Part shown: positions 4,221-60,183 of the stretch, in pieces
Layout of the letters: each line of letters begins with the position of its first letter
How positions within the stretch are numbered: the stretch's first letter is position 1
DNA from: Clostridia bacterium
GTDB taxonomy: Bacteria; Bacillota; Clostridia; Oscillospirales; Acutalibacteraceae
DNA: 64,000 nt
NCBI GenBank assembly: GCA_017439545.1
Contig: JAFSIW010000048.1
Coordinates: 33,244-97,243 of the forward strand
Reading direction: 5' to 3'
Notes under the pieces: model-generated
What the model saw: the letters and a program-made list of their open reading frames with translations, nothing else
Told to the model about the DNA's origin: nothing
The model's database searches: none
Position numbers and translations under genes: made by a program

Positions 4221-4293
4221 AAGGATCTCCTCCTCTAATTCACACAATATAGTGTGTATTTCATTTGCAATGTACCATACTATGGTAAAAAAG

Positions 4294-5908: not shown

Positions 5909-5950
5909 CACAAACAGCAAAGCCGAACCGCAACAGCAGTTCGGCTTTTT

Positions 5951-6847: not shown

Positions 6848-6855
6848 AGATTCCC

Positions 6856-11490: not shown

Positions 11491-13122
<1,632 letters not shown>

Positions 13123-13140
13123 TTCCAAAGCAAAGGAAAA

Positions 13141-13173
13141 TCCGTAAGACCGATCGGTCTTACGGATTTTTTT
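13141..13173. terminator. Bidirectional rho-independent terminator (groEL / 252-aa gene)
   Basis: Perfect 26-nt palindrome TCCGTAAGACCGATCGGTCTTACGGA, flanked by an A-run on the left and TTTTTTT on the right. It lies between convergent genes. Confidence 0.85.
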
Positions 13174-13192
13174 AATACGACGAATGGATTCA

Positions 13193-13951
13193 CTATGACA
13201 ACGAAGGAATGGCATCGGTGGTAGGACCTGCCGTAATATCGCCACCCACCCCGCTGAGGGTTACATTCCATTCTTGTACCACAGCGGTTTGTGCCGTGGT
13301 GCCCGCAAAGCGAGATGCGGTTTCACATTGAATGGCATCCACCAAAAAGTCGGTTGTTAGGTTAAAGGTGCGATTAGTACTTTGCACATTGTATATTTTA
13401 GTCGTTCCGTTCCAAACATCGAAGGCACTGAACATGGTAGTGGTTTTGGCACCTGCCGCCAAGGGTTTACGATAATACAGCACCGTATAGGAAACCGAAC
13501 CGCTTCCTACTGTTTCGGTAATGGTGGTTTCCAGCCAATCTGCCGAGCGGACGGTATAGTTATAGTCCGCCTTGGAAGTAGTGCCGTCATCATTGGCATA
13601 GGTGGCATTTTGGGCGCCTTTTACCGGCGCTCTCGCCAGCACTTGGCGAGTCGTTCCTAAGGCACCGCCCGTTGCGATCCAGTTGTTCGCCTCTTGGTTG
13701 ACCCAGTTAACTGCCACAACCACCCGCACGTAGGCGGGCATGTTGCCGTTGTTTTGTACGTAGGCATTGACAGCACTGCCGCTGCCGCCCACCACAACGT
13801 CGATATTATTACTTTGTAACGTGGTAAGATCAGTACCGACAGAATGAATGAGATAAGCACTGGTTTCTCCCACAAAAGAGAAGGACAACACCCCGCAAAG
13901 CAAGGAGACGATCAAGATCCGTTTGATCAGAGAAAAAATCTTATTGTTCAT
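13193..13951 (-). CDS. Secreted TasA/camelysin-like protein with SipW-type signal peptide
   Basis: MNNKIFSLIKRILIVSLLCGVLSFSFVGETSAYLIHSV... A hydrophobic core is followed by the T-x-AY[LF]-type junction typical of SipW-dependent signal peptides, then VQNNGNMPAYVRVVV. It starts 12 nt downstream of the 459-aa gene, so the two are probably an operon. Confidence 0.65.
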   Translation of the reverse strand: MNNKIFSLIKRILIVSLLCGVLSFSFVGETSAYLIHSVGTDLTTLQSNNIDVVVGGSGSAVNAYVQNNGNMPAYVRVVVAVNWVNQEANNWIATGGALGTTRQVLARAPVKGAQNATYANDDGTTSKADYNYTVRSADWLETTITETVGSGSVSYTVLYYRKPLAAGAKTTTMFSAFDVWNGTTKIYNVQSTNRTFNLTTDFLVDAIQCETASRFAGTTAQTAVVQEWNVTLSGVGGDITAGPTTDAIPSLS

Positions 13952-42944: not shown

Positions 42945-42984
42945 TTGAAAAAATTTAAGCACCGCAGTTTCCTGCGGTGCTTAA
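42945..42984 (-). terminator. Rho-independent terminator of paralogue P1
   Basis: Perfect 13-bp stem TTAAGCACCGCAG / CTGCGGTGCTTAA with a 4-nt loop. On the minus strand it is followed by ATTTTTTC. Confidence 0.8.
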
Positions 42985-43069: not shown

Positions 43070-45505
43070 TTAGTTAATGATATACCCTTTACCCGACTGT
43101 GCGGCAAAGTCCAAGAAAGAATATAGTTCAAGGTACTGCATTTTGTGTCCCTTTTCATTGCCATACTCAGTAAAGTTATTCACGATTTGTTCCGTTTGGG
43201 AAGGCGAGATGCAAACCGTTCGGTAAGCGGCAAAGTTATAGCCGTTCATCCGTTCAAACGCGTGTTCGTACAAAGCACTCATAGGAGTATCGGCCCCGAT
43301 TCCGTTGTTGCAATACACGTAAGGAATGCCTTTGTATTGCGCCATCTTCGCGGCGCCGCAATTATGCAGACTGCCCATGGTTGAAAACGTGCTGAAGGTG
43401 CGCATTACGTCGGTGGTCATGGGGTTGCTTCCGTTGATAATAAAGCCGGTAGCCTTAATATCAAACCGATCGTAGAAGGTTTTGCAATAGGTCGCCCACA
43501 TGGTATCCCCGTTGGCGTACTGGGCCGGACGGGGCTTGCCGGTATAGGCAAGGTTATCGCCGCCGAACAGACCGGCAGGAATCACGTAACCTGCGCCGCT
43601 GTCCCCTGCGGCAATGAATTCGTGATCATATTTATTGGCGTAAATATAATCAAAGACCATTGGCACCCGTTGAGATAAGTTGGGGTTGAAGCACCAAGTA
43701 AGAGGGATGCGGGAACGAGCCTTATCGCCGCCGCGGTTGACCCAATAGTTATACACGAAGGTTTTCAGCCATGCCGAGGAATCGTAGTCCCCTAAATAAA
43801 TGGTAAAGTAGGTGGTCTCGTCATCATAAGTCAGACCGTGATCGTATTCCTCCCACTTATTGTCATAGGTAGATGACAGAGGAACATACTTATAATACGC
43901 TGAGCCATTGGTCATATTGGCAGGTTGTGCCGCGTCAGCTTCTTTTGCCAGATTGTAGCAAGAAATATACTCACAGTACAGCCATTCGATCCAAGTGGCG
44001 GCGGCTGTTCCCTGCTCCACATCAATACAGTATTTGACCCACCAGGGAGGAAAGCCCATTAACTGACCCATAGCACCCTTGGCACGTTCATAGCGGCGAG
44101 CGTAGATCATCAGCATCGTTTCTTGGTCGGTGCCAAGTTCCGCTAAGGTACCGATCAAATTATTCTCGTAGGTATAGACCCAGTCCACAGCAACATACTC
44201 GCCGCAACCATCGCATAAAGGATCTTCATACCCGGTCAATTCATCCACATAGTAATACCGTTCATGACCACACGCCAGGCACGTATAATGCACCCGTGTT
44301 TGCTGCGCAACGTCGTCACAAATTTCCTCTTTATTGGGCGAAAGGTCAAAAAAGAAGCAACGACGGGCAATCAGATAATCGTGATTGGAAAGGCAGGTAA
44401 TATAGGAATTCCACAACAAAGCGGTAGGATTGTCGGGATAGGCTTCGTATCCCTTGATGCAGGGTGCGCCATCCAAAATATAAGCAAGGTAATTGGCAGA
44501 GCAACGGTCGAAATATTTTTCCAACGCCCAGCGGTACGCATCGTTTTTGGCGCTACCGGTGCTGATCACGTTGGTATCGGCGATTTTTTCGCCTTTGTGC
44601 CCATCTTCGAACAAACCAACCAAGGATTGTTTCACCGCAATGCCTTTGTCCAAAAGTTCTTGGTGGAGAGGGCTTTTTGCCAGCACGGGCAAATATCCGT
44701 CCAGACCGCAAATGGTGCCTGCTACGTTGGCGGTAGCAGGTACGTAGCCATCCCACAAAATCACACCGCAATAGGCGATCTGATTTTTAAAAGCGTTGTA
44801 AAATTCATCCCAAGAGGCAATACGGATCTCTTCATAGCCTTCGTACACCGAGCCTTCAGCTTTCATATATTCCAGCCAGCCCACGTCCATATCCGCTTCG
44901 GTCATATAGATAATGGAGGTGTGATCGGCATCCCGTCCGAAGTCCCGATTCACAAGCCCCTGCAGGCTGTACGCCAAACGACGCACGTCGTTATTCACCA
45001 GCGCATTATTGCCAATCCTGTAAATGGTTTTAGCTTGCAGACCGGTGTTATCCATTACAAAACTGCAATCGGCAGTGGTATCGGTGGCATAAGCGCCGTT
45101 CACCGACAGAGAGGTATTATATTCAAAGTCGCTTTCCTTATATGCCTGATAGGTGGCGAAAGGGTCAACGTATTGATAGTCGGACAAACTGCCCGCATCG
45201 TGGGCATCCCCTGCCGCAAAGCGGTCAAGCTTGCCTACCACCCGCTTTAGTACGCACAATGCATCCGACGCATTCACGCCGCCGTCTACATCTACGTCAC
45301 CCAACGTCATCTGTAGGTTAGAAAAACTCACCTTACCTACGGTATATTGCAACATCAGCAAAGCATCGTTGGCATTGGTCACGTTGTCATCGTTTACGTC
45401 ACCGAAGCGGTAGGCATTTCCCCGCAAGGTCACGTCCGAAGAGGCAGATACCGTAACGGTAAACAGCGTAGCAACAGCCAGCATCAGACAAATCCATCGT
45501 TTCAT
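43070..45505 (-). CDS. P1: secreted dockerin-bearing protein with an uncharacterised enzyme-like core (GxGYxYP-like, putative glycan-active)
   Basis: Signal peptide MKRWICLMLAVATLFTVTVSASS. The dockerin is a duplicated segment: GDVNDDNVTNANDALLMLQYTVGK ... GDVDVDGGVNASDALCVLKRVVGK. The core has the blocks NHDYLIARRCFFFDL, GFPPWWVKY, GDYDSSAWLK, NPNLSQRVP and GAGYVIP. ATG 45505 lies 9 nt after an AAGGAG RBS. Confidence 0.8.
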   Translation of the reverse strand: MKRWICLMLAVATLFTVTVSASSDVTLRGNAYRFGDVNDDNVTNANDALLMLQYTVGKVSFSNLQMTLGDVDVDGGVNASDALCVLKRVVGKLDRFAAGDAHDAGSLSDYQYVDPFATYQAYKESDFEYNTSLSVNGAYATDTTADCSFVMDNTGLQAKTIYRIGNNALVNNDVRRLAYSLQGLVNRDFGRDADHTSIIYMTEADMDVGWLEYMKAEGSVYEGYEEIRIASWDEFYNAFKNQIAYCGVILWDGYVPATANVAGTICGLDGYLPVLAKSPLHQELLDKGIAVKQSLVGLFEDGHKGEKIADTNVISTGSAKNDAYRWALEKYFDRCSANYLAYILDGAPCIKGYEAYPDNPTALLWNSYITCLSNHDYLIARRCFFFDLSPNKEEICDDVAQQTRVHYTCLACGHERYYYVDELTGYEDPLCDGCGEYVAVDWVYTYENNLIGTLAELGTDQETMLMIYARRYERAKGAMGQLMGFPPWWVKYCIDVEQGTAAATWIEWLYCEYISCYNLAKEADAAQPANMTNGSAYYKYVPLSSTYDNKWEEYDHGLTYDDETTYFTIYLGDYDSSAWLKTFVYNYWVNRGGDKARSRIPLTWCFNPNLSQRVPMVFDYIYANKYDHEFIAAGDSGAGYVIPAGLFGGDNLAYTGKPRPAQYANGDTMWATYCKTFYDRFDIKATGFIINGSNPMTTDVMRTFSTFSTMGSLHNCGAAKMAQYKGIPYVYCNNGIGADTPMSALYEHAFERMNGYNFAAYRTVCISPSQTEQIVNNFTEYGNEKGHKMQYLELYSFLDFAAQSGKGYIIN

Positions 45506-45523
45506 GTCATTCAACTCCTTGGA

Positions 45524-45561
45524 ATAGAAAGAGAGGCGAGCGATGGAAGACCGCTCGCCTC
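45524..45561 (-). terminator. Rho-independent terminator of paralogue P2
   Basis: Stem GAGGCGAGCG / CGCTCGCCTC with a 9-nt loop, followed by a T-rich tail on the minus strand. Confidence 0.7.
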
Positions 45562-45570
45562 GAACTAACT

Positions 45571-47880
45571 CTATTGAATTGTAGCGCCTTGACCGGATTG
45601 TTTCAACACTTTCGCATAGGTATAAGGATCAACGTATGCTACCTTCAAGCCTTTGTCGGAAGCATAGGTTTTGAATCCGGACACCATGCCGTTAATTTCG
45701 GTAGGCGTCTTGCAGACCGTGCGGTAGGCACTGAAGTTGTATCCGGCGTTCAAGGTAGTCTGAGCATGTGAGTACATAGTACTTTCACTGCCGGGACCGA
45801 TGCCGTTTTGGCAATAAATAAAGTACGTTCCGTTATATTTACCAACGCGGGTATTGAAGCAGTTGGTAAAGTTGATGACCGGTGAATACTTGGTAACACA
45901 AGCTGCAATGTTCTTGGTCACGGTATGCTGTGCACCGTTGATGATAAAGCCGGTCACATCCATATCAAACCGATCGTAATAGGTTTTAGAGAATCTGGCG
46001 AAGGCATCGCCGCCTGCCGCATTGCCTGCGGGACGTTTTTCGCCCATATACGCCAGCCGATTGTCGTGGAACAGGGCTTCGGGAATGATGTATCCTGCGC
46101 CGCCGTCACCGCCGGCCATATAGTCCAGATCGCTCTTGTTGTTATACATATATTCGAAGATCATGGGAACACGATCACTCAGATTGGGGTTGATGGACCA
46201 CATCAGCGGCAAAGTGCCACGTTTCTTGTCGCCGCCCCGTTGTGCCCACATGGTATAGATGTGTTGTTTGAGCCAAGCGGAGGAGTCATAGTCCCCTACG
46301 TAAATGGTGTAATAGTAGGTATCTTTATCAAAGGTGGTATCGGTGGATGCTTTGTTATTGGTGTACTTTTTGGTACCGGGAATATATTTATAATAAGCCG
46401 AACCGTTGGTCATTTGGGCAGGATGTGCCGCATCGGCTTCTTTTGCCAAGTTGTAGCAAGTGATATATTCGCAGTACAGCCATTCGATCCAGGTGGCTAC
46501 CTGACCGCCCTGACCGTGGTGGGAGGTGTATTTGAGCCACCAGGGGGGGAAGCCCATCAAGAAGCCGAATTCACCATTGGCGCGGTCGTAACGGGCTTGA
46601 TAGATCTTCAGCATGGTAGCATTGTCTACGCCCCAATCCGCTTGATCGTTTTGTTGGGCAGGGTCATCACAGGCAGCTTCCAGCGAATAGGGAGCCAAGT
46701 CGAAGAAGAAGCAACGACGGGCAATCAGATAGTCGTGGTTGGACAGGCAGTTGGTGCCGGCATCCGACAGCAAGGCTGTGGGATGATCTTCATATGCCTC
46801 GTAGCCCTTAATGCAGGGGGCGCCGTCCAAGGTGTAAGCCAAGTATTTGGAGGAACAGCGGGGGAAGTATTTTTCCAATGCCCACAGATAAGCGTCATTT
46901 TTGGCGCTACCGGTGCTGGCAATATTGGTGCCGGTGATCTTTTGGCCTTTTTGGCCGTTTTTAAACATTCCCACCAGACTCATTTTTACTTCCACGCCGG
47001 CTTCCACCAATTCTTTGTGCAAGGGGGATTCGGCGAGCACGGGCAGATAACCGTCCAAGCCGCAGATGGTGGCGGCTACGTTGGCAGTAGCAGGTACGTT
47101 ACCGTCCCACAGAATAATACCGCAGGATTTGATTACTCCCATGAATTTTTCTATAAATAAATCCCAAGTATTTACCCGAATTTCGGACATTCCGTCTTGC
47201 GCGCCTGCTTCTGAAGCATCTTGCAGAATTGAACCGTCAGCGGTAATGGTGTTAAGCCAATGGGCATCGGAGGTTTCTTTGGTGAGATACAACATCGAGG
47301 TGTGCTTATCATCCAATCCGAAGTCACGGTTAATCAGTCCTTGCAAGCTATAGAACAAACGGGCAGAATCGGTACTGCTACCAACAGCAGCAGAAGTAGC
47401 ACGGTAAAGGGTGAAGGGTTGCAAGGTACTGGTGTCCAACCTAAAACTGGTATCGGCAGTGGTATCTGCTACATATGCGCCGTTGACCGAATTGGATTTA
47501 TCATAATCCAAAATATAGTTGCCGGTAGGCTCGGGTTTTACGGAGGTGTCATTGATCACGTAATAAACACCGGGAGCAAAGGCGGTAACCTTACCCACCA
47601 CATATTGCAAGATGATCAACGCATCAGCGGCAGAGACCGTGTTGTTGTCGTCTACGTCTAAAACATTTTCTTGATCTTCATTCAGCAAGGTTTTACCAAC
47701 CACGCTTTGCAAAGCCAGCAATGCATCAGCCGCGCTGACAGTTTGGTCCAAATTCCCGTCACCGTACTTTATGTAATCGGTGCCGTAAGTCCCTTCGGGC
47801 ACTTCCTCAGCCAATACGGGCACAGAAACCACACTGACAAGCATAAGCAAGGTCAGCAAAAGGGCAATACTTTTCTTCAT
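45571..47880 (-). CDS. P2: secreted dockerin-bearing paralogue of the same core
   Basis: ATG 47880 (MKKSIALLLTLLMLVSVVSVPVLAEE) follows a GAGGAAG RBS; the track start is 81 nt upstream. Dockerin: GDGNLDQTVSAADALLALQSVVGK ... DVDDNNTVSAADALIILQYVVGK. Same core blocks, with GAGYIIP. Confidence 0.82.
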   Translation of the reverse strand: MKKSIALLLTLLMLVSVVSVPVLAEEVPEGTYGTDYIKYGDGNLDQTVSAADALLALQSVVGKTLLNEDQENVLDVDDNNTVSAADALIILQYVVGKVTAFAPGVYYVINDTSVKPEPTGNYILDYDKSNSVNGAYVADTTADTSFRLDTSTLQPFTLYRATSAAVGSSTDSARLFYSLQGLINRDFGLDDKHTSMLYLTKETSDAHWLNTITADGSILQDASEAGAQDGMSEIRVNTWDLFIEKFMGVIKSCGIILWDGNVPATANVAATICGLDGYLPVLAESPLHKELVEAGVEVKMSLVGMFKNGQKGQKITGTNIASTGSAKNDAYLWALEKYFPRCSSKYLAYTLDGAPCIKGYEAYEDHPTALLSDAGTNCLSNHDYLIARRCFFFDLAPYSLEAACDDPAQQNDQADWGVDNATMLKIYQARYDRANGEFGFLMGFPPWWLKYTSHHGQGGQVATWIEWLYCEYITCYNLAKEADAAHPAQMTNGSAYYKYIPGTKKYTNNKASTDTTFDKDTYYYTIYVGDYDSSAWLKQHIYTMWAQRGGDKKRGTLPLMWSINPNLSDRVPMIFEYMYNNKSDLDYMAGGDGGAGYIIPEALFHDNRLAYMGEKRPAGNAAGGDAFARFSKTYYDRFDMDVTGFIINGAQHTVTKNIAACVTKYSPVINFTNCFNTRVGKYNGTYFIYCQNGIGPGSESTMYSHAQTTLNAGYNFSAYRTVCKTPTEINGMVSGFKTYASDKGLKVAYVDPYTYAKVLKQSGQGATIQ

Positions 47881-48051
47881 AACATTCACTTCCTCAACTG
47901 TTTTTCGGATCCGATATATAAGGTGATCCAACATAATGATTATACACGAATCCGACCGCAAAACTCAATACACATTTATCACAAAAAACCACATTCCACT
48001 TTGGTGGTTTTACACAAAAAAACCTGTGGTAAAATATTCAAAATCACCAAA

Positions 48052-48084
48052 GAAAAACGCTGTAAGGAGAACCCTTACAGCGTT
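48052..48084 (-). terminator. Rho-independent terminator of paralogue P3
   Basis: Stem AACGCTGTAAGG / CCTTACAGCGTT, followed by TTTTTC on the minus strand. Confidence 0.75.
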
Positions 48085-48091
48085 TTATCAA

Positions 48092-50416
48092 TTAGAGATT
48101 AGAGCCTTGATTGGATTGTTTGATCAGATCAAAGTAAACATAGGGATCGCAGTATTTTACTGACATACCCTTGCCTGCAGCATAGGTTTGGAAAGAAGAA
48201 ACTGCGGAATTGATCTCGGTGGGAGTCCAGCAAACGGTGCGGTACGCGCCGAAGTTAAGGCCCTTATTTTTTGCACCGTTGGCAAAGTTGTACATTTCGT
48301 TAGAAGAACTGGTGGTATTGCCCTTGGTAATACCGGTCAAGCATCCTACAAAGCGGCTGTTGCCCGATTTATAAACGCCGGCTTTGTTGTCGTTAAAGAA
48401 GCCGCCCACGGGCGAATACTTAGCAACCGTCGCTGCCATCTTGGTGGTAATGTTGCCGTTACCGCCGTTGATCAAAAAGCCGGTAATATCCATATCAAAC
48501 CGATCGTAATAGGGCTTGGAGTACTTGGCAAACACGTCACCTGCTTCGGCATTGCCTGCGGGACGTTTTTCGCCGGTATAGGCTAACGCCTTGTCGTGGA
48601 ACAAGCCGGAGGGAATGATGTAGCCTGCGCCGCCGTCACCGCCGGCAAAGTAGTCCAGATCGCTCTTGTTCTTGTACAGATATTCAAAAATCACCGGTAC
48701 ACGGTCAGAAAGATTGGGGTTGATAGACCACATCAAAGGCAGAGTACCCCGCTTTTTGTCGCCGCCCCGTTGCACCCACATGGAATAAATATGTTGCTTG
48801 AGCCAAGCGGAAGAGTCATAGTCACCCACATAAATGGTGTAGTAATAGGTGTTGCTGTTATAGGTGAGTTTTTCGGAAGCAACGTTGTTGGTATAGGTGG
48901 TGGTTTGGGGAATATACTTATAGAATACCGAACCGTTGGTCATAGCAGCAGGATGGGCTGCGTCGGCTTCTTTTGCCATATTGTAGCAGGTAATGTATTC
49001 GCAGTACAGCCATTCGATCCAAACGTCTGCCTTAGAGCCTTGGTCGTGGTGGGTGCAATATTTAGCCCACCAGGGAGGGAAGCCCATCAAAGCGCCGAAA
49101 GCGCCGTTGGCACGGTCGTAGCGGGCTTGGAAAAGCATCAGCATGGTTTCATTGTCCACACCCTCGGCGGCCTGACCGTTCTTTTGGGCAGGGTCGTCGC
49201 AAGCGGGTTCGTACTTATAAGGAGCCAAGTCGAAGAAGAAGCAACGACGGGCAATCAGGTAGTCGTGATTCTTCAGACAGGATTCACCGCCCAGAACAGC
49301 GGTGGGGTGATCTTCATAACCGTAATCCGAATAACCGCTCAGGGTAATAGCACCGTCCAAGGTGTACGCCATATAGCGGGAAGAGCAACGGGGGAAATAT
49401 TTTTCCAAAGCCCAACGGTAAGCGTCGTTTTTGGCAGAACCGGTGGAGATGGCATTGGAATCAGCAATCTTTTGACCCTTTTGGCCGTTTTTGAACAGTC
49501 CCACCAAGGATTGCTTAACAGGTACGCCCTTTTCTACCAAAATGGTATGCAAAGGAGAGTTGGCAAGGACCGGCAGATAACCGTCCAGACCGCAAATGGT
49601 AGCGGCTACGTTGGCGGTAGCGGGAACGTTACCATCCCACAAAACAATACCGCAGGATTTGATAACGGGCAGGAAAGTTTCCAGGAAAGCGTCCCAAGAG
49701 TTAATGCGAACTTCTTTCAAACCACGGTCGCTGTATTCCAAAATAGAACCTTCGCCATTCATTTGACTAAGCCAGCCGGAGTCGGCAGTTTCGGTCACGC
49801 AAATGATCATAGAGGTATGATCCTTATCCATACCGAAATCACGGTTTACAAGACCTTGCAAGCTGTAGATCAGACGGGCAAAGTCGTTGCTGCCGGCAAT
49901 GCCGGTGGGCTTCATGGGAGAAGCAGACAAACGGTACATGGTATTGGATTCAATGCCGCTCAGATCGATCACAAAACTGGTATCGGCAGTCGTATCTTTC
50001 ACATAAGCGTTATTGACGGCTTTCGAGGTGTCATAATCTGCAATGTAGTTGCCGGTGGGAGGGGCAGGAGGAGTTACAATCGCCTCTTCGATTACATAGT
50101 AAACACCTGCTTTAAACGCCGATACCTTGCCTACCACATATTGCAGGATCATCAAAGCATCGGCGGCGGCAACAGCATCATCGTCGTTCACGTCCCCGAC
50201 CTGACTTTTATGCTCATCCAAGGTGGCCTTGCCCACCACGGATTGCAATACGATCAAAGCGTCGGCGGCGGCAATTGATCCGTCATAATCCAGATCGCCG
50301 TATTTTACATAATTTGTACCGTATTCCCCTGCCGGAACGTCTTCGGCAGCGGCGGGTACTACCATTACGCCTACCGTCATTATCAAGGTAAGCAAAACGG
50401 CAAGTACTCTTTTCAT
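48092..50416 (-). CDS. P3: secreted dockerin-bearing paralogue of the same core
   Basis: ATG 50416 (MKRVLAVLLTLIMTVGVMVVPAAAED) follows an AAGGAG RBS. Dockerin: GDLDYDGSIAAADALIVLQSVVGK ... GDVNDDDAVAAADALMILQYVVGK. The core is very close to P2 and P4, with long identical DNA tracts. Confidence 0.82.
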   Translation of the reverse strand: MKRVLAVLLTLIMTVGVMVVPAAAEDVPAGEYGTNYVKYGDLDYDGSIAAADALIVLQSVVGKATLDEHKSQVGDVNDDDAVAAADALMILQYVVGKVSAFKAGVYYVIEEAIVTPPAPPTGNYIADYDTSKAVNNAYVKDTTADTSFVIDLSGIESNTMYRLSASPMKPTGIAGSNDFARLIYSLQGLVNRDFGMDKDHTSMIICVTETADSGWLSQMNGEGSILEYSDRGLKEVRINSWDAFLETFLPVIKSCGIVLWDGNVPATANVAATICGLDGYLPVLANSPLHTILVEKGVPVKQSLVGLFKNGQKGQKIADSNAISTGSAKNDAYRWALEKYFPRCSSRYMAYTLDGAITLSGYSDYGYEDHPTAVLGGESCLKNHDYLIARRCFFFDLAPYKYEPACDDPAQKNGQAAEGVDNETMLMLFQARYDRANGAFGALMGFPPWWAKYCTHHDQGSKADVWIEWLYCEYITCYNMAKEADAAHPAAMTNGSVFYKYIPQTTTYTNNVASEKLTYNSNTYYYTIYVGDYDSSAWLKQHIYSMWVQRGGDKKRGTLPLMWSINPNLSDRVPVIFEYLYKNKSDLDYFAGGDGGAGYIIPSGLFHDKALAYTGEKRPAGNAEAGDVFAKYSKPYYDRFDMDITGFLINGGNGNITTKMAATVAKYSPVGGFFNDNKAGVYKSGNSRFVGCLTGITKGNTTSSSNEMYNFANGAKNKGLNFGAYRTVCWTPTEINSAVSSFQTYAAGKGMSVKYCDPYVYFDLIKQSNQGSNL

Positions 50417-50564
50417 ACAATTCACTCCTTCAGTTTATTGGGTGAATTCATTATACAACAAAGTTATCACAAAAACAAGAGTTTTTTTATTCAAATCTAC
50501 GTGTGAATTATGCCAAGAAAATAGGCACCCGCGCAAAAGCACGAGTGCCTGAATACAAATTGCG

Positions 50565-53500
50565 TTAACCGCCGATCTTTACCAGATTATCAAACAACAT
50601 ATAGGTGGGAGTTGCGCTGTTTGCATAATTGAAATAGGTAATACGAATGGCGCGAATAGATGCCCAGTTGGGGGTATTGGCGGTAGCACCGGGTTTGGAT
50701 TTATCGATGTTGATGGTATGCCAACCGGCAGTGGAATTGTTGATGGCTTGCATAAAGTTGTAGCCATCGTCCTGACCGTTGGTAACGAAGTTCACCTGAA
50801 TCCCTGCCGAGGCAGGAGCCGCTTCGGGCAGCCAGTAATCCAAGGTGAAGGAAGTAGCGGAAGACAAATCCACAGGAGTAGTAAATACATAATAGGCCAT
50901 ACCGCCGATTTGTGTGTTGGCCGACTGAGCGGTGGGTGCCGTAAAGTCCAGACGCAGAGCGCCGGTTCCCTCTTTCTTGGTGGTGGTATCAATGGATGCG
51001 GTGGTAGCAAAGGCCGTGGTGGTGTTGGCGGTAGCATCAAAGTTCAACAGCACGCTGGATTGCACCGGATCAGGAATCGTAACTGCGGCATCTACCGTCA
51101 GGTTATCAATCAGCATATAGTTGGGGGTTGCATTATTATTCAGATTGAAATAGGTAATGCGGATGGCGCGGATCGAAGCCCAGTTGGGAGTTTGAGCGGT
51201 AGCGCTGGGTTTGGCCTTTTCAATGGTCAGCGTATGCCAGCCTGCGGGAGTCTCGTCGATACCCACGGTGAAGTTGTAACCGTCGTCTTTGCCGTTGGTG
51301 ACAAAGTTCACCTGCAAAGCAGTAGAGCCTACCGCTTTTTCGGGCAGCCAATAGTCAAGAGTAAAGGTGGTAGCCGCCGACAGGTCAACGGGAGCGGAGA
51401 ATTCGTAATATGCCATACCGCCGATCTTGGTGGATGCCGATTGACCGGTGGGATCGTTAAAGCCCATGCGCAACGAACCGTTACCTTCAGACTTATTGGT
51501 AGCTTCAATGGCGGTGGTAGTAGCAAAGGCATTGGACACACCTGCCAACGAATCAAAGTTAATCAACACGTTAGACACATCACTTGATACGGTTACGTCG
51601 GCATCGAGGGTCAGATTGTCAAGCAACATATAATTGGGCTCTGCATTATTATCATAATTGAAATAGGTAATGCGGATCACCTTGATATCCGACCAATTGG
51701 GGGTATTGGCAGTGGCGTTAGGTTTAGATTTGTCAAAGGTCAAGGTGTGCCAACCTGCGGTGGCATTATCAAGACCCGCCATAAAGTTATAGCCATCATC
51801 TCTGCCGTTGGTAATAAAGTTAATCTGCAACCCTGCAAGGCCTGTAATGGATTTGGGAATCCAATAGTCCAAGGTAAATTTGGTGCCCTTAGACAAATCA
51901 GCCGACCCGTTAAAGGCATAGGTCACCATACCGCCGATTTTGGTGGTGCTCGCCTGACCGGTGGGAGCACCAAGTCCTAAACGCAATGAGCCATTGCCTT
52001 CGCTCTTATTGGTAGTTTCAACAGAAAGAGTGGTTTCAAAGTCGCCGATAAAGCCTGTGGTTTGGTCAAAGTTGAGGAACACCTTTTGACTCGAAGGCGT
52101 TACCGGAGGATCGGGGGTGACAGGAGGATCGGGATTCACGGGAGGTGTTACCGTACCGTCGGTTACTTTACGCAGATTATCCACCATCATAAAGGTGGGC
52201 TTGGCATTGTTCGCGTAATTGAAATAGGTAATACGAATGGCGCGAATGGATGCCCAGTTGGGATTTTTGTCGGTTGCCACAGCGCTGGGCTTTGATTTGT
52301 CAAAGGTCAAGGTGTGCCAACCGGGGGTAGCATTATCCAAACCGGCCATAAAGTTATAGCCATCGTCTTTGCCGCTGGAAACAAAGTTCACCTGCAAGCC
52401 TGCCGAGCCAACAATGGCATCGGTCAACCAGTAATCCAAGGTAAACTGCGTCACGTTGGACAGGTCTACAGGATTGGGGAATTCATAGTAAGCCATACCG
52501 CCGATCTTGGTGGCATTGGCTTCTGCCGTAGGATTGCCGAATGCCATATGCAAAGCACCCGAACCTTCGGTCTTGTTGGCAGTTTCAATGGCAACCGTGG
52601 TACTGAATTCAGCGGTAATACCACTCAAACTGTCAAAGGGAACGATCACGTTAGGATCGGGAGGAACGAATTCATCGGGAGTAGGCGTTACCAAAGTAGA
52701 GGGAGTGCTGGCAGTACCGAGATTTGCCCCTTGACCCGAAGCCTTCAACAGATTGTAGTAGGTGTAGGGGTCAACGTATTTCACCTTCATACCCTTGCCG
52801 GAAGCATAGGTATCAAAGCTGGTTACAATACCGCTGATCTGGGTGGGAGTCAAACAAACCGTACGGTATGCGCTGAAGTTATAGCCTGCGTTTTTGGTAG
52901 TAACAGCATGATCATACATAGCAGCTTGACTGGTCGTGCCCACGCCGTTGTGGCAATAGACAAAATAAGTAGAGCCGTATTTACCAACGCGAGTATTAAA
53001 GCAGTTGGAGAAGTTCAGCTTGGGAGAATAACGGCTGACGCAATCGGCGATATTAGCCGAAATGGTAGGCTGACCGCCGTTGATGATAAAGCCGGTCATT
53101 TCCATACCAAAGCGATCATAATACTTCTTGCTGTAAGCAGCAAAGATACCGCCGCCCGCTCCATAAGGACGTTTGGTTCCGGTATAAGCCAGGTTTCTGT
53201 CTTGGAACAGACCTTCGGGGATGATGTAGCCTGCGCCGCCGTCACCGCCGGCAAAGTAGTCCAGATCGCTCTGATTCTTGTACAGATAATCAAAGATAAC
53301 CGGTACACGGTCGGACAGGTTGGGGTTGATGGACCACATCAAGGGCAGAGTACCACGCTTTTTGTCGCCGCCCCGTTGTACCCACATGGAGTACATCTTT
53401 TCTTTCAACCAAGCAGAAGAGTCATAGTCCCCTACGTAGATGGTGTAATAGAAGGTGTTTTTATCAAAGCTCAGGTTTTCGCTGGGGGTGGTGTTGTTTT

Positions 53501-55067
53501 TGTATTCGTCCAATTGAGGAACGTATTTATAGAACACCGAACCGTTGGTCATAGAAGCGGGCGCTTGGGCGTCGGCTTCCTTAGCCAGGTTGTAGCAAGT
53601 GATATATTCACAATACAGCCATTCGATCCAAGTATCTTCTTTACTGCCCTGTCCCTTTTCCGTAGTATATTTGCACCACCAGGGAGGGAAGCCCATCAAA
53701 GCACCGAAGGCGCCGTTGGCACGGTCGTAACGGGCTTGGAAGATTTTCAGCATGGTAGCATTGTCAGTACCCGCGGCGGCCTGACCGTTCTTTTGAGCGG
53801 GGTCATCGCAAGCAGCTTCACCGGCATAGGGCGCCAGATCAAAGAAGAAGCAACGACGGGCAATGAGATAGTCGTGGTTGGACAGGCAGTTGTTACCGCC
53901 GATGACTGCGGTGGGATGGTCGGCATAACCGTAAGCCGAATAGCCGCTCAAGGTGATAGCACCGTCCAGGGTATAAGCCAAGAATTTGGAAGAACAACGA
54001 TGGAAGTATTTATCCAAAGCCCAAAGATAGGCGTCGTTTTTCGCAGAACCTGTGCTGGCAATGGAGGTGCCGGTAATGGCAGTTCCTTTTTGACCGTCTT
54101 TGAACAGCCCCACCAAAGATTGCTTAACAGGTACACCGTAATCCACCAAAATTTTGTGCAAAGGAGAGTTTGCCAAAACCGGTAAATAACCGTCAACACC
54201 GCAAATGGTAGCGGCTACGTTGGCGGTGGCAGGTACGTTACCGTCCCACAGAACAATCCCGCAGGATTTCATCACGTTGCCAAAGGTTTTGAGAAAATCA
54301 TCCCACGTGCCCACACGCACTTCGGTCATACCGTTCATACCGTTTTCTTCGGTAGCATATTGCATAATGGTGCCGTCGGCGGTCATTTCGCCCATCCAGC
54401 CGATATCGGCAGTTTCAACCACCACAGCCATCATAGAGGTGTGATCTTTGTCCATACCGAAATCGCGGTTAATAAGCCCTTGCAAGCTGTAAACAAGACG
54501 GGCAAAATCATTATGGCCGTCAATTCCGCTGGGACGCAAGGGGGCGGAGGACAACCGATACATGGTATTGGGAGCAAGGGTGCTCACGTCGGTTACAAAG
54601 CTGCAATCGGCAGTTTTGTCAATTTCCTAAGCCCCGTTGGTGGAAGCCGATTTATCATAATTGGCAATATAATCCTCAATGGGTGCGGGAGGATCGGGAT
54701 CCACGGGCGTATCACTTCCGCCGTCATCCACCGGTTGAATCATATAATACTGGCCGGCTTTGAACGCCGCAATTTTGCCAACGACCATTTGCAGAATCTG
54801 CAAAGCATCAGCAGCACTGACCAAGGTGTCAGCGTTTACGTCGCCCACTTTTTGTTTGTGTTCATCAAACTGTGTTTTGCCAACTACCGATTGTAAAATC
54901 AGCAGGGCATCGGCAGCCGAAACCGCCTCATCATAGTTCACGTCGCCGTATTTCACATAGTTGACACCGTATTCCCCTGCGGGAACATCTTCGGCTACGG
55001 CAAAAGGTACTGCAACAACACTGAGCAAAGTAACAACTGCCAGCAAAGCGCATAGTACTTTTTTCAT
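50565..55067 (-). pseudogene. P4: largest paralogue (signal peptide, dockerin, core, four CBM-like modules), interrupted by one in-frame TAG at 54627-54629
   Basis: Track ORFs 54627-55106 (signal peptide plus dockerin, ending ...YDKSASTNGA*) and 50565-54587 are in the same frame. Read-through gives NGA*EIDKTADCSF, where the paralogues have NGAY..DTTADTSF. There is no other lesion in about 1,500 codons. ATG 55067 follows an AGAGGAG RBS. Confidence 0.6.
50568..52649 (-). repeat. Four tandem ~162-aa (about 485-nt) CBM-like coding repeats at the C-terminus of P4
   Basis: Units lie at about 52649-52164, 52085-51603, 51572-51090 and 51056-50568. Each has NFD...T.[AS][IV][ED]T.NK.EG.G[AS]L..., KIGGM.YY.F, DLS..T.FTLDYW[LI], GLQ[VI]NF[VI], DDGYNF, GWHT[LI], NW[AS][DS]I[RK][AV]IRITYFN and DNL. 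A Pro/Thr linker (TPPVNPDPPVTPDPPVTP) follows unit 1. Confidence 0.85.
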
Positions 55068-55194
55068 ATCCTTCACTCCTCTTTTATTGCTCTGTTTGAG
55101 AAACAATAGTTACCATATTATTGTACACGAAAACACATACAAACACAAGTTGGCTTTTGTAACAAAAAAATTTAATATCTTTGTGAAAGTTACA

Positions 55195-55232
55195 CAAAAG
55201 ACAAACCGACGAAATATACATTCCGTCGGTTT
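55195..55232 (-). terminator. Rho-independent terminator of paralogue P5
   Basis: Stem AAACCGACG / CGTCGGTTT with a 12-nt loop, followed by a T-rich tail on the minus strand. Confidence 0.65.
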
Positions 55233-55239
55233 TGGTTGG

Positions 55240-57534
55240 TTAACAAATGACAGTACCTTGTTCAGACTGTCGGATCAGATCAAAAAAGGTATAGGGGTCT
55301 ACGTATTGGGTGGTCACACCTTTTTCTGCCGCATAGGCGTCAAAACTGCTGACTATTTGCTTTATGTTGGTGGGAGTGGCCAACACCGTACGATAGGCAG
55401 CAAAATTATAACCGCGCATCCGATCGGTCAAGTGGCTGTACAGCACCGACGGAGAGGTATTCACGTCCACACCATTTTGGCAATATACGTAAGGCGTACC
55501 CTCATACACACCCAGCATTGTCTGTGTCATATTGGTGAGACTGCCAACGGGTGAAAACCGATTATAGCAACGGGCAACCTGCGGCTCAACGGTTAACACC
55601 GAGCTGTTGATGATAAAGCCCGTAATATCCAGATCAAACCGTTTGTAAAAGGCCTTGCAATAGTCAGCCCAAGCATCCGTAGCATCCCCATTGCCCGTGG
55701 GACGGGCTTTTCCGATCAAAGGCATTTGGTAGTCCGCCACCAAGGCAGAGGGCATCACATAACCCGCTCCGCTGTTGCCGCACACAAAAAAGTCTAAATC
55801 GGTCTTGTTTTCATACACGTAATCAAACACCATGGGAATCCGATGAGACAGATTGGGGTTATATCCCCACATCAGGGGCAGTTGTCCCCGATTTTTGTCA
55901 CCGCCCCGTTGCATCCACATACTGTAAACGTAATCCTTGACCCAGGCAGAAGAATCGTAATCTCCCAAATAAAGGGTATAATACGAAACGTCGGGATCAA
56001 AAACGGTTTTGGTCTTGGGTGCGTTGTTCTTATAGGTTTTGTGGCGGGGCACGTATTTATAATACACCGAGTGATTGGCGGTATTGGCAACATCGGCATC
56101 TTTGGCTAAATTGTAACAAGAGACGGTTTCCGCCAATAGCCATTCCACCCAAGTGGGGGCAATTGACCCTTGACCGCCGTGGGTGGTATATTTGGACCAC
56201 CAGGGAACAAATCCCAAAAACTGACCGAAGGCGCCCTTGGCCCGATCATAGCGCGCTTGCAGGATTTTACACATGGTATCGTTATCCAACCCAATATCCG
56301 CCTGCCCGTTCTTCTGAGCAGGGTCATCGCAAGCTGCCTCATTGGGGTTGACTGCCAAATCAAAAAAGAAGCAACGGCGGGCAATATAATAATCGTGATT
56401 GGCCAGATGATTACTCCCCCCGAGCAAAGCGGTGGGATGATCGGGATAGGCTTCGTATCCCTTTATGGCAACCGCTCCGTCTTGCACGTAGGCAATATGC
56501 GTGGTGGTGCAACGGGGAAAGTAGTTTTCCAGCATCCACAAATAGGTGTCGTTTTTGGCCGAGCCGGTGCTGATTAAGGTAGAATCCGCCAACGGTTGTC
56601 CTCGTTTGCCGTTTTCAAACCTGCCCAGCAAGGTCTGTTTCACAGGAATACCAAGGCTCGCAAGCTTAGTATGCAAAGGACTTTGAGCAAGCACCGGCAG
56701 ATAACCATCCAATCCGCAAATGGTGGCGGCAGCGTTGGCGGTGGCAGGCACGTTACCGTCCCACAAAATCAACCCGCAAGAAGCAATCACCTGCTCAAAG
56801 TGTTGTAAAAATGCTTCCCAGGTATTGATGCGCACCGCAGTCAACCCCAACTGCTCTTTTTCAGGGTCTGCCATTTGCATAATGGTACCGTCGGCAGTGA
56901 TCTCGGTCAGCCAACCTACATCCGAGGTGTCTTTGGTCACGTACACCAGCACGGAATGATGCTCATCCATTCCAAAGTCCCGATTGATCAGTCCCTGCAA
57001 GCTGTAAATCAAACGAGCACGATCGGTGTCATTGACCACAGCGGAGGCAACGCGATAAATCGTGCCTGCTGTAAGCGAACTGACGTCTACCGAGCAGGAG
57101 GTGTCGGCGGTGACATCTTTTTCATAAGCGCCGTTGAGAGAATGGGAGGTATCGTAGCGGGTAATATACTCCTGTACCGTAGTAGGGGGCAGTTGGGTAA
57201 CGATCCTATAGTACTCCCCTACCGAAAACCCTGTCAGCTTGCCCACCACAAACTGCAAAATCAGCAGGGCGTCTGCCGCACCTACCGTACCGTCTCCGTT
57301 TACGTCCCCCACAGTGGGATACGGGTCTTGCAGTTGCACCTTGCCCACGGTAGCCTGCAACACCGCAAGGGCATCAGCAGCGGTAATACTTTCGTCCGTA
57401 TTCAGGTCGCCGTATTTCACGTAATGGATGCCGTATTCTCCTGCAGGTTCAACATCCGACGGGGTTGCCGCCGCAAAAGGAACCGAGCCCAGCAACAGAA
57501 AAACAGCCAAGCCAAAAGAAAGCCAACGTTTCAT
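55240..57534 (-). CDS. P5: secreted dockerin-bearing paralogue (more divergent)
   Basis: ATG 57534 (MKRWLSFGLAVFLLLGSVPFAAA) follows an AAGGAGAA RBS. Dockerin: GDLNTDESITAADALAVLQATVGK ... GDVNGDGTVGAADALLILQFVVGK. Core blocks are NHDYYIARRCFFFDL, GFVPWWSKY and GAGYVMP. Confidence 0.82.
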   Translation of the reverse strand: MKRWLSFGLAVFLLLGSVPFAAATPSDVEPAGEYGIHYVKYGDLNTDESITAADALAVLQATVGKVQLQDPYPTVGDVNGDGTVGAADALLILQFVVGKLTGFSVGEYYRIVTQLPPTTVQEYITRYDTSHSLNGAYEKDVTADTSCSVDVSSLTAGTIYRVASAVVNDTDRARLIYSLQGLINRDFGMDEHHSVLVYVTKDTSDVGWLTEITADGTIMQMADPEKEQLGLTAVRINTWEAFLQHFEQVIASCGLILWDGNVPATANAAATICGLDGYLPVLAQSPLHTKLASLGIPVKQTLLGRFENGKRGQPLADSTLISTGSAKNDTYLWMLENYFPRCTTTHIAYVQDGAVAIKGYEAYPDHPTALLGGSNHLANHDYYIARRCFFFDLAVNPNEAACDDPAQKNGQADIGLDNDTMCKILQARYDRAKGAFGQFLGFVPWWSKYTTHGGQGSIAPTWVEWLLAETVSCYNLAKDADVANTANHSVYYKYVPRHKTYKNNAPKTKTVFDPDVSYYTLYLGDYDSSAWVKDYVYSMWMQRGGDKNRGQLPLMWGYNPNLSHRIPMVFDYVYENKTDLDFFVCGNSGAGYVMPSALVADYQMPLIGKARPTGNGDATDAWADYCKAFYKRFDLDITGFIINSSVLTVEPQVARCYNRFSPVGSLTNMTQTMLGVYEGTPYVYCQNGVDVNTSPSVLYSHLTDRMRGYNFAAYRTVLATPTNIKQIVSSFDAYAAEKGVTTQYVDPYTFFDLIRQSEQGTVIC

Positions 57535-57588
57535 AAACTTCTCCTTACAAAAGGAAGCCAAGGGAAATCCTCGGCTTCGCTTGTTTGA

Positions 57589-59448
57589 TTATAATCCTTG
57601 CTCACATTGACCCGATTGGCGCACCAGATCAAAGAAGGTATAGGTATCCACGTACTCGTAGTCATACTCGGGATTCTGCTCTTTAGCGTATGCCAAGAAG
57701 CGGTCTACCAGACGCTTTACGTCGCTGGGGCTGTCGCACACGTAGCGAAAGCCGGCAAAATTATAGTCCTTCATTCGGCCGAAGATGTGGTTATACATGG
57801 CCTTGGCAGAATTCTCATAGGCGTGAGGCTTCCCGCTCACCCCGTTATGCAGGTAGATAAAGGGCACGCCGTTGTAGCTTGCCATGGTGGTGTTGGCGCA
57901 GTTGTGGAAGTTGCCCACGGGCGAAAATTGGGCAAAGGTCTTCATGATCTCGGTGGTCATGGGATAATGCCCGTTGATGATGAAACCGGTATTATCCAGA
58001 TCAAACTTATCATAATAATAAGCACAATGCTCCGCCCATTTTTGCGAACCGTCGGGCAGTTCACGCAGGGAACAGCTCTCATACAACGCTGCAGGGATCA
58101 CGTAGCCTGCGCCCGTATCCCCCGCCGAGAAAAAGTCGTTGTCGGTCATTTCTTCGTGGATGTAGTCAAACACCATAGGCGCCCGCTCGGACAAATTGGG
58201 GTTAAAAGCCCAGTTGATGGGCAAGGTGCCCCGCACAGGGTCGTTCCAGAAGTTTTTCACGTGTTGTTTCAGCCAAGCCGCCGAGTCATAGTCACCGCCG
58301 TAGAAGGTAAAGTACTTGGTTTTGTTGTTAAATACCTTTTTTTCTTTGGGACGGGGATTTTGATACCGTTCAAAGTTGCTTTGATATTGACAATAGAAGG
58401 AAGCGTTACTCATGGTGCAGGGGTGAGCCGCATCCGCTTCTTTTGCCAGATTATAGGCGGTAACCAATGCCACGTAGGTCCATTCCACCGTGGTGGCTAC
58501 CAAAGAGCCCATCCCGCGGGAGGCGGTATATTTTACCCACCAAGGGGGGAAGCCCAAGATCTGACCGAAAGCACCTTCGGCACGGTCGTACCGACCTTTG
58601 AAGATCATTTTCAAGGTTTCCAGATCGCAACCCAGGGGCTGGTCGGGATCGTCACAAGGACGCTCAACATCCACACAGGTCAAATCAAAGAAGAAGCAAC
58701 GGCGGGTAAGATAATAGTCGTGGTTATATAAGCAGTTGTAGGCGGAATCGGGCGCGTTCTTTTCAAACACCGTACCGGGAACACAGCCTGCGCCGTCTAA
58801 GATATAGGCGATATAGCGGGAGGAGCACCGATGAAAATAGTTGTCATACGCCCAGCGATAGGCATCGTTTTTGGCACTGCCGCAAGACACAAAGCCGTTT
58901 TGATACACACTGCCGTCTTTGCCGAACATTCCCACAAGGGATTGCTTGACCGCTACCCCTTTTTGTTGCAGATAAGCGGCAAAGCTGTCGGCTTCATCGG
59001 TATACCGCACGGGCAAAGGACCTTCCAATCCGCAAACGGTTGCCGCCACGTTGGCGGTGGCAGGAACAGACTGATCCCACCAAATGATGCCGCATTGGGC
59101 AATTTGAGGAGCAAACAGTTCCGTAAATTCATCGATATTTTTCACGGGAAGCAATGCCATTCCGTGGAAGGACTTGTTCTCGCTCATGGTGTAGTCCAGC
59201 CAAAACTTGTCCGACTCGGTCACGTCAAGATAGATCAAGGATTGATGGGTTTTGCCGTAATCCCGATTCACAAGCCCTTGCAGGCTGACCACAAAACGGG
59301 TCACGTCCTTATTATAAATAGGAGCCATTCCCTCAAAAAAGGTTTGATCAATATAATAAATGGTATTGGGTTGCAGACCATCGGTCACGATCTGAAAGGA
59401 TTCATCCGCCGAATGATCGGGCTGAATGGTATACTTCAATTTTTCCAT
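57589..59448 (-). CDS. P6: cytoplasmic paralogue consisting of the core only (no signal peptide, no dockerin)
   Basis: MEKLKYTIQPDHSADESFQIVTDGLQPNTIYY... starts directly at the core. It has an AGGAGGAA RBS and retains NHDYYLTRRCFFFDL, GFPPWWVKY, GDYDSAAWLK, NPNLSERAP and GAGYVIP. Confidence 0.8.
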   Translation of the reverse strand: MEKLKYTIQPDHSADESFQIVTDGLQPNTIYYIDQTFFEGMAPIYNKDVTRFVVSLQGLVNRDYGKTHQSLIYLDVTESDKFWLDYTMSENKSFHGMALLPVKNIDEFTELFAPQIAQCGIIWWDQSVPATANVAATVCGLEGPLPVRYTDEADSFAAYLQQKGVAVKQSLVGMFGKDGSVYQNGFVSCGSAKNDAYRWAYDNYFHRCSSRYIAYILDGAGCVPGTVFEKNAPDSAYNCLYNHDYYLTRRCFFFDLTCVDVERPCDDPDQPLGCDLETLKMIFKGRYDRAEGAFGQILGFPPWWVKYTASRGMGSLVATTVEWTYVALVTAYNLAKEADAAHPCTMSNASFYCQYQSNFERYQNPRPKEKKVFNNKTKYFTFYGGDYDSAAWLKQHVKNFWNDPVRGTLPINWAFNPNLSERAPMVFDYIHEEMTDNDFFSAGDTGAGYVIPAALYESCSLRELPDGSQKWAEHCAYYYDKFDLDNTGFIINGHYPMTTEIMKTFAQFSPVGNFHNCANTTMASYNGVPFIYLHNGVSGKPHAYENSAKAMYNHIFGRMKDYNFAGFRYVCDSPSDVKRLVDRFLAYAKEQNPEYDYEYVDTYTFFDLVRQSGQCEQGL

Positions 59449-59479: not shown

Positions 59480-59545
59480 TTGACCGGTTTGAGTCCGGTC
59501 AACTTACTCTATTTTCAATTATACCGACAGAAAAAAACAAGTCAA
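59480..59545 (-). promoter_or_regulatory. Promoter of P6 plus a leader palindrome
   Basis: Minus strand: TTGACT (59545-59540), 16-nt spacer, TATAAT (59523-59518). Downstream lies the perfect inverted repeat TTGACCGG-N7-CCGGTCAA (59480-59502), between the promoter and the RBS. Confidence 0.6.
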
Positions 59546-59576: not shown

Positions 59577-59609
59577 TTGACGGTCACGTGACCGTGTGAT
59601 ATAATCACA
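59577..59609 (+). promoter_or_regulatory. Near-consensus promoter of the DUF1836-nfeD-flotillin operon with two embedded palindromes
   Basis: TTGACG (59577-59582), 17-nt spacer, TATAAT (59600-59605) with an extended -10 TG. The spacer contains the perfect palindrome GGTCACGTGACC (59582-59593). TGTGAT-ATA-ATCACA (59595-59609) straddles the -10 element. Confidence 0.7.
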
Positions 59610-59631
59610 GTGACGATGAGAGGTGAATGCA

Positions 59632-60183
59632 ATGAAAGACTATCTTCCCGGCACCACCCTGGAGACCGATTGGAGCAGTCCCGATCCGTTGAGCGTACTG
59701 GACGCAGTATTCTCGGCAGGCGGTCTGGTTTTATCGCAGGTCTCCCGCTTGACAGGGCTGGAGCCACATACGGTGCAAAATTGGGTCAAACGCGGATTTT
59801 GCTCATCCCCTGTGGCCAAACAGTATTCCATTCGGCAGTTTTGCCGTTTGGTTACCATTAATCTGCTCAAAGACAGTCTTTCGCTGCCTCAAATTACCGA
59901 TATGCTGTCCTACATCAACAATTCGCTGGCCGACGAGTCGGACGATGCCATTGGTGATGATCAGTTGTATCGGTATTTCGTCACAATTTTACAGCAGTTG
60001 GAGCATACGGCTCTGTCAGATGACCAATTGACCGCCACGGTGCAATCGGTCATCAAGGACTACCGAGAGCCTTATACCGGTGCCGCCAAACGGTTGGAGC
60101 GTGTTCTCATCGTCATGGTTACCGCTTACTTTGCCACCCGTTTGCAGACCCGTGCGCAACGGCTGCTGCAGAATTTAGATTAG
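59632..60183 (+). CDS. DUF1836-family protein (putative HTH-containing)
   Basis: LSQVSRLTGLEPHTVQNWVKRGFCSSPVAKQYSIRQFCRLVTINLLKDSLSLPQI fits the DUF1836 pattern (T...NYVK.G..P.P..K.Y....L..L..I..LK..LS...I). ATG 59632 lies 6 nt after a GAGAGGTG RBS. Confidence 0.6.
   Translation: MKDYLPGTTLETDWSSPDPLSVLDAVFSAGGLVLSQVSRLTGLEPHTVQNWVKRGFCSSPVAKQYSIRQFCRLVTINLLKDSLSLPQITDMLSYINNSLADESDDAIGDDQLYRYFVTILQQLEHTALSDDQLTATVQSVIKDYREPYTGAAKRLERVLIVMVTAYFATRLQTRAQRLLQNLD

Follow-up and report, generated by a model that had tools for sequence, protein, structure and literature searches.

The locus described here raises the question of what a run of six paralogous genes, five of them tagged for attachment to a partner protein, does in a gut bacterium whose neighbouring genes serve housekeeping. 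The genes, P1 to P6, occupy positions 43070-59448 of a 64,000-nucleotide stretch of contig JAFSIW010000048.1 (assembly GCA_017439545.1; the whole stretch is called the window below), and their products share a core of about 620 amino acids (aa). The host is an uncultured Acutalibacteraceae gut bacterium (Oscillospirales), probably from a ruminant; the nearest genomes are uncultured Acutalibacteraceae/Clostridia metagenome-assembled genomes (MAGs) recovered from guts, among them buffalo caecum, rumen and rabbit. The six proteins are members of the known GxGYxYP putative glycoside hydrolase (GH) family, and the locus is a dockerin-bearing tandem array of a known, structurally solved family, not a new kind of system. 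With moderate confidence, it is explained here as a vertically inherited array in which P1-P5 are cohesin-docked glycoside hydrolases and P6 is cytoplasmic.

Six members of the GxGYxYP family

The open reading frame (ORF) listing and its translations place six adjacent minus-strand genes in the array, each with an ATG start: P1 (43070..45505), P2 (45571..47880), P3 (48092..50416), P4 (50565..55067), P5 (55240..57534) and P6 (57589..59448; 619 aa). Eight motif blocks occur exactly once in every one of the six proteins; in both respects the first-pass annotation, which had been made from the sequence alone, is borne out. Its guess that the core corresponds to the Pfam GxGYxYP putative glycoside hydrolases was also right. 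The C-terminal domain GxGYxYP_C (PF14323) exceeds its gathering score of 27 bits in 6/6 proteins, with 39.9 bits in P1, 67.7 in P2, 78.4 in P3, 64.6 in P4, 71.6 in P5 and 88.9 in P6. As for the N-terminal domains (PF16216 and PF20957), the first passes its cutoff (23.9) in P1 and P6, P2-P5 giving a weak match or none; the second (N_2nd) passes its cutoff (24.5) in P2-P6, and P1 falls just short at 22.9. NCBIfam gave no match for any core, repeat or neighbouring unknown protein, and no characterised CAZy family was found for the core, CAZy itself not having been queried directly.

The only sequence match of the core in the PDB is 3SGG (BT2193), and the same entry heads the structural search. 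An AlphaFold 2 (AF2) model of P6, built on 39 homologues, reached a predicted local distance difference test score (pLDDT) of 93.7 and a predicted template-modelling score (pTM) of 0.92. Against the PDB, Foldseek returned 3SGG at E 2.6e-22, with a TM score of 0.64 when normalised to the query and 0.76 to the target, and the match spans the whole protein: three alpha/beta repeats and a seven-stranded beta/alpha barrel. After 3SGG nothing scored better than E 9e-4. The next neighbours are weak matches (E 1e-3 to 1e-1) that share the (beta/alpha)7 barrel, namely CE4-type deacetylases (3RXZ, 3S6O), GH57, NDST and GH38. Unlike in GH38, GH57 and CE4, whose catalytic residues are missing here, the putative active site is shared with the N-terminal repeat domain, and identity to these families is at most 10%. 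A large, motif-rich third repeat was considered as a special feature of the clade and rejected, as GxGYxYP genes of about 585 aa from Sphingobacteriia share its motifs and align over the full length (hhalign E 7e-48).

For BT2193, a catalytic triad of Glu272, Asp331 and Asp333 has been proposed, in a cleft that also holds Tyr394 of the GxGY motif (Rigden et al., 2014; PMC4071793). HMMER aligns SDGDN of BT2193 (D331/D333) with GDYDS of P6 (D386/D388), and 391-GSSYIFP with 446-GAGYVIP (Y449); D386, D388 and Y449 are invariant in 39/39 diverse homologues. Only this stretch, from the DxD to the GxGY motif, aligns, and HMMER gave no alignment to P6 for the region of Glu272. The equivalent of Glu272 may be the invariant E322 of P6, which belongs to an 'EW' motif, because it stands 64 residues before the DxD motif, against 59 for Glu272 in BT2193, and is aligned by hhalign with the 'TEWE' glutamate of the neighbouring clade. 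Furthermore, the barrel holds no invariant histidine among the 39 homologues, which speaks against an Asp-His-His metal site as in CE4.

Taken as a whole, the array proteins resemble BT2193 in their domains, two-domain fold, Asp-x-Asp pair and GxGY tyrosine, and they resemble the family at large in being linked to carbohydrate-binding modules (CBMs) and, in Bacteroidota, to polysaccharide utilization loci (PULs) with GH92. They differ from BT2193 in sequence (about 15% identity), in a Gram-positive Clostridia host, in the motif variant GAGY[VI][IM]P, in their N-terminal dockerins and in forming a six-gene array among housekeeping genes instead of a PUL. The earlier description of the core as uncharacterised holds for its biochemistry: like the first-pass annotation, which knew of no biochemical characterisation, the literature yielded no biochemical or functional study of any family member. 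It does not hold for the family as such, which has a name, Pfam models and, since 2011, a crystal structure (1.25 Å). GxGYxYP proteins are also strongly over-represented in gut metagenomes.

Dockerins, a sibling without one, and the age of the array

As read from their sequences, P1-P5 are exported proteins that begin with a type-I dockerin. In each, a hydrophobic signal peptide comes first and then two D-x-[ND]-x-[DN]-x6-DAL loop-helix segments, 34 residues apart, and the earlier identification of these duplicated segments as dockerins stands, since Dockerin_1 (PF00404) exceeds its gathering score of 22.9 bits in all five: P1 (~45215-45400, 35.5 bits), P2 (~47575-47760, 24.0), P3 (~50111-50296, 27.2), P4 (~54759-54944, 37.3) and P5 (~57223-57408, 36.1). 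In addition, the P5 segment matches solved dockerins, among them those of Acetivibrio cellulolyticus ScaB (4UYP) and Clostridium thermocellum Xyn10B (2CCL/1OHZ), and also 2Y3N. A hidden Markov model (HMM) made from the five dockerins, run on the window translated in six frames, picked up no others. Ruminococcus bromii is placed in the Acutalibacteraceae in GTDB. Cohesin-dockerin systems are documented in this family, for instance the Limousia mucinolysome with its multi-cohesin scaffoldins (PMC12997984). With the enzymes of the cellulosome, the R. bromii amylosome and the Limousia mucinolysome (PMC12997984), P1-P5 share a signal peptide, a two-loop type-I dockerin and a predicted carbohydrate-active module, and in these systems, too, several paralogous enzymes are predicted on one attachment system. 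Unlike in cellulosome-type enzymes, the dockerin here is N-terminal, directly after the signal peptide. Dockerin-GxGYxYP fusions already exist in many database proteins; they are absent from the architectures listed in the 2014 paper on the family (PMC4071793), and the supplements of the Limousia paper (PMC12997984) contain no mention of GxGYxYP.

P6 carries neither a signal peptide nor a dockerin. It starts at the first possible start codon after the upstream stop, which leaves no in-frame room for either, and Dockerin_1 gave no match. Because it lacks a signal peptide, P6 is probably cytoplasmic. Its orthologues have 612-632 aa, and in a neighbour-joining tree it represents the basal and most widely conserved lineage of the array. 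An exact-sequence look-up of P6 returned no match.

The array is old. Within the window, the paralogues share 44-71% aa identity, 53-72% nucleotide identity and 39-57% identity at third codon positions, and in the neighbour-joining tree each pairs with its own orthologue in the MAG JAZRFL01, at 87-88% identity for P6 (from the partial contig L005), 81% for P5, 80% for P4, 81% for P3, 79% for P2 and 66-67% for P1. Mapping by tblastn finds the array in synteny, with DUF1836-NfeD-SPFH on one side and mreB-mreC-PBP2 on the other, in four other loci (L003, L006, L016 and L020). Because the paralogues group with their own orthologues and the array keeps its place, the sequences indicate that the duplications predate the species split and that the array has been inherited vertically.

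The first-pass annotation had read the family as recently expanded or homogenised by gene conversion, on account of identical tracts between P2 and P3. The tract that it cited is exact over 38 nt (46691-46728 = 49221-49258), and it lies in the most conserved peptide motif. Tracts were assessed by permuting codon pairs between columns of identical amino acid, for five gene pairs and without correcting P for that number. The 38-nt tract is not longer than the permuted controls (P=0.05). A 52-nt tract shared by P3 and P4 stands out nominally (P=0.006, uncorrected) and is, with the 38-nt tract, what speaks for recent exchange; the other three pairs showed no unusual tract, so that four of the five give nothing. 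The evidence for gene conversion is thus marginal, and recent expansion or homogenisation is very improbable, already contradicted by the tree and at odds with the divergence between paralogues.

Function, substrate and competing explanations

A profile of the 39 homologues retrieved 2287, 1188 and 502 cluster representatives at E <=1e-3, 1e-10 and 1e-30, respectively, among 1.84 billion. The close homologues are nearly all unnamed or called 'hypothetical protein', and many carry Dockerin_1. Long relatives additionally carry N_BRCA1_IG, CBM9, SLH, dockerin, F5/8 type C (CBM32), Big_2, CBM_4_9 and RicinB domains, a set of modules that fits extracellular carbohydrate-active enzymes. In human-gut MAGs, a P6-like gene adjoins ATP-binding cassette (ABC) permeases and a DUF5696 protein, a family for which the literature yielded no functional study. 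In Pedobacter (L048), Parapedobacter (L049) and Anditalea the clade occurs in PUL-like loci, with SusC-SusD-DUF3823 in L048, L049 and L057. There, and in L051, the clade gene adjoins a second GxGYxYP gene of about 585 aa, which is followed by GH92 in Parapedobacter and by a DeoC aldolase and a GFO oxidoreductase in Pedobacter; the paired genes may work together. Across 24 loci, GFO/IDH/MocA, DeoC, major facilitator superfamily (MFS), GH95, SusC/D and GDSL proteins were each tallied in 2-4 loci, and no clear substrate emerges. For GxGYxYP, Rigden et al. (2014; PMC4071793) had pointed to neighbouring GH92 and GH38 genes as well as an alpha-mannan PUL. As loci with GH92 and SusC/SusD are the only association that recurs across phyla, mannose-rich or mannose-containing glycans are the leading, weak, guess at the substrate.

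In the mechanism proposed here, P1-P5 would bind through cohesin-dockerin contacts to a scaffold or an anchor at the cell surface, encoded in another part of the genome, and would act as glycoside hydrolases of diverged specificities on one complex extracellular glycan; P6 would finish imported oligosaccharides in the cytoplasm. Glycosidase chemistry, display by cohesins, the division of labour between surface and cytoplasm and the single glycan target are what we infer from the locus. Several observations weigh against it. The array lies among housekeeping genes (mreBCD, PBP2, SPFH), and Pfam scans found no cohesin in window ORFs of >=200 aa, no sugar transporter in the window and no other carbohydrate-active enzyme next to the array, in agreement with the first-pass annotation, which had seen neither a cohesin nor a dedicated transporter in the window. 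P4 is cut by a stop codon in the window, the equivalent of Glu272 is not mappable by sequence, and the very term 'glycoside hydrolase' goes back to a structural prediction of 2014. The distant gene context (86 neighbour proteins in the 24 loci) is heterogeneous.

The competing explanations concern the attachment, the chemistry and the target. The dockerins might serve without a multi-enzyme scaffold, each enzyme sitting singly on a one-cohesin surface anchor or another partner for surface display only. C. perfringens offers one example of a single-cohesin system (summarised in PMC12997984), no scaffoldin is seen in the window, and relatives in other lineages are anchored simply at the surface through SLH domains; the existence of Acutalibacteraceae with multi-cohesin scaffoldins, such as Limousia, speaks against it, though not directly, and we regard it as unlikely yet worth keeping in view. 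That the proteins act on carbohydrates in another way, as deacetylases or esterases, lyases, phosphorylases, transglycosylases or by binding only, is rather unlikely. The structural neighbours next after 3SGG do share their fold and are led by CE4-type deacetylases, and no measured activity was found in the literature for any member of the family; nevertheless, the absent CE4 metal site, which Rigden et al. (2014; PMC4071793) also failed to find in BT2193, opposes a deacetylase, the active-site residues are invariant in all six copies, which opposes a role in binding only, and the invariant acidic trio with its aromatic-rich cleft fits a glycosidase.

The surroundings of the array suggest another target, namely glycopolymers of the bacterium's own envelope (such as a secondary cell-wall polysaccharide or capsule), which the enzymes would remodel while tethered by their dockerins to the cell's own surface, with no part in breaking down glycans from diet or host. 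In the window, as in L016 and L020, mreB-mreC-mreD-PBP2 adjoin the array, and the link to the cell-elongation operon recurs because in a genome further removed mreD and PBP2 flank a dockerin-tagged homologue (P0046 in L077). This adjacency may, however, be synteny inherited within one bacterial family. Each array gene also has its own terminator-like hairpin, a strong one separating P1 from mreB, the clade belongs in other phyla to nutrient-acquisition loci with SusC/SusD and GH92 or has ABC permeases as neighbours, and the accessory modules of relatives are typical CBMs. An envelope function is accordingly judged improbable, and the reading of P1-P5 as cohesin-docked glycoside hydrolases with a cytoplasmic P6 is preferred.

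A bolder form of that reading is tentative and, in our estimate, doubtful: a dedicated cohesin-docked set, drawn entirely from a GH family undefined in CAZy, whose five surface members and cytoplasmic sibling would jointly break down a glycan that no known system in Firmicutes degrades, such as fungal or yeast mannan or some other mannose-rich polymer of the ruminant gut. If it were true, characterisation would establish a new GH family and bring to light a '-some' complex of a new type. On the preferred reading, cohesin-dockerin display in Acutalibacteraceae would come to include an enzyme family that the current CAZy repertoire lacks, and pipelines of the mucinolysome type would miss the array, because they score only CAZyme and peptidase domains. 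The six genes offer a natural panel for the substrate and the proposed Asp/Asp/Glu site, comprising diverged copies, dockerins or CBM-like modules and a cytoplasmic sibling. The locus thereby points to good candidates; it does not answer the question of function.

Expression signals, accessory modules and neighbouring genes

The copies are probably expressed individually, because each has its own ribosome-binding site (RBS) and terminator-like hairpin and several have promoter-like sites. An AGGAG/GGAGG sequence lies 6-9 nt upstream of the ATG in 6/6 genes, and a 10-15-bp hairpin with a T-run follows 6/6 genes on the minus strand, at 57554..57578 (P6), 55203-55232 (P5), 50523-50550 (P4), 48054-48086 (P3), 45533-45561 (P2) and 42955-42984 (P1). 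The first-pass annotation had claimed such an RBS and hairpin for most copies and a TATAAT promoter for several, and promoter-like -10 boxes do precede P6, P2, P3 and P4. The best promoter-like site (59518..59545, minus strand; 11/12 matches) lies upstream of P6 and faces a divergent 11/12 site of a DUF1836 gene (59577-59605, plus strand).

The gene behind that divergent site (59623-60183, plus strand) encodes a DUF1836/MerR-like helix-turn-helix protein and is followed by NfeD and SPFH/flotillin genes, a trio that keeps its synteny with the array in L003 and L006. The DUF1836 gene had been overlooked when the window was said to hold no obvious regulator. By its position, it is a candidate regulator of the array; it may control only its own operon.

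P4 had been presented as one whole gene. In the window, an in-frame TAG at codon 147 (54627-54629, minus strand; TNGA*EIDKTAD) interrupts it, replacing a Tyr (NGAY) found at this position in all paralogues and orthologues and splitting the gene into a 146-aa fragment with signal peptide and dockerin and a remainder of 1353 codons. Contigs from ENA ERZ28654157 and ERZ28653841 match the window at 99.97-99.99% identity. Over 7650 aligned bases, an ENA contig (L080) agrees with the window at 99.987% identity; it encodes a protein identical to P5, a protein present in two ENA contigs. The sole difference is T versus G at codon 147 of P4, which reads TAT (Tyr) in L080, where an intact P4 of 1500 aa is called at 2583-7085. 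The stop is therefore a nonsense variant of very recent origin, unless one of the two sequences carries a sequencing or assembly error. An exact-sequence look-up of the truncated N-terminal fragment and a metagenome scan for the DNA around the stop, with TAN allowed, returned no match; a look-up of P0001 matched only a 2.2-kb contig.

The extra 2.1 kb of P4 consist of four tandem C-terminal repeats of about 160 aa (50574..52649, minus strand), at 52164-52649, 51603-52082, 51087-51566 and 50574-51053, which align with the first repeat at 59-62% identity. They match no Pfam or NCBIfam family. A profile search retrieved one homologue only from a set of 5.8 billion proteins, and the AF2 model, built on an alignment of five sequences, is for that reason of medium confidence (pLDDT 70). 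It shows a beta-jelly roll whose best PDB matches in Foldseek are a mannanase CBM, CBM11, CBM30, CBM28, CBM4 and CBM8 (E ~1e-5, TM 0.5-0.6). Because the likeness is at fold level, from a medium-confidence model and with no sequence-family match, the repeats are called CBM-like, resembling CBMs and belonging to no named CBM family. In a sheep caecum MAG (JAFVID01; L031), a tandem array of at least four dockerin-GxGYxYP genes, each ending in a single module like the P4 repeat, was observed, and the CBM-like module is therefore a recurring accessory of the clade.

P1 carries an insert of its own, 49 aa (44144..44290, minus strand) with a zinc-ribbon-like CxxC...CxxC pattern, just after the CDD motif in the third N-terminal repeat. 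A Cys4 or Cys/His pattern is kept in the P1-type orthologues of six other loci (L016, L018, L020, L030, L006 and L021).

By Pfam scans, the genes around the array are housekeeping genes (PolA, GroEL, GidA, MurC, CdaA, MinD, PBP2, MreBCD, SPFH/NfeD), together with an amino-acid ABC transporter, a GH4 and an AraC regulator 24 kb away. An ORF of 415 aa at 11998-13245 (minus strand) was rejected as a gene, being a shadow of groEL (11491-13122, plus strand). L077, which carries P0046 (10001-12211), comes from another Eubacteriales MAG; immediately upstream of its mreB is the gene of a GDSL esterase that also bears a dockerin.

Two secreted proteins of 395 and 459 aa (270-1457 and 13964-15343, both minus strand) are paralogues (27% identity, E 2e-17) with no match in Pfam or NCBIfam. 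They are the best non-self matches to the P4 repeat in the window (E 0.003 and 0.017), share with it the pattern 'DFWL...DG[FW].[YW]N' and could be surface proteins that bind glycans. A further secreted protein of 252 aa (13193-13951, minus strand), also lacking a family match, is encoded immediately downstream of the 459-aa protein. Finally, a 913-aa protein (1560-4301, minus strand), which has no signal peptide and no NCBIfam match, has as its only hit a sub-threshold one to Glyco_hydro_14 (23 bits, cutoff 27) and is possibly an intracellular glycosidase not yet classified.

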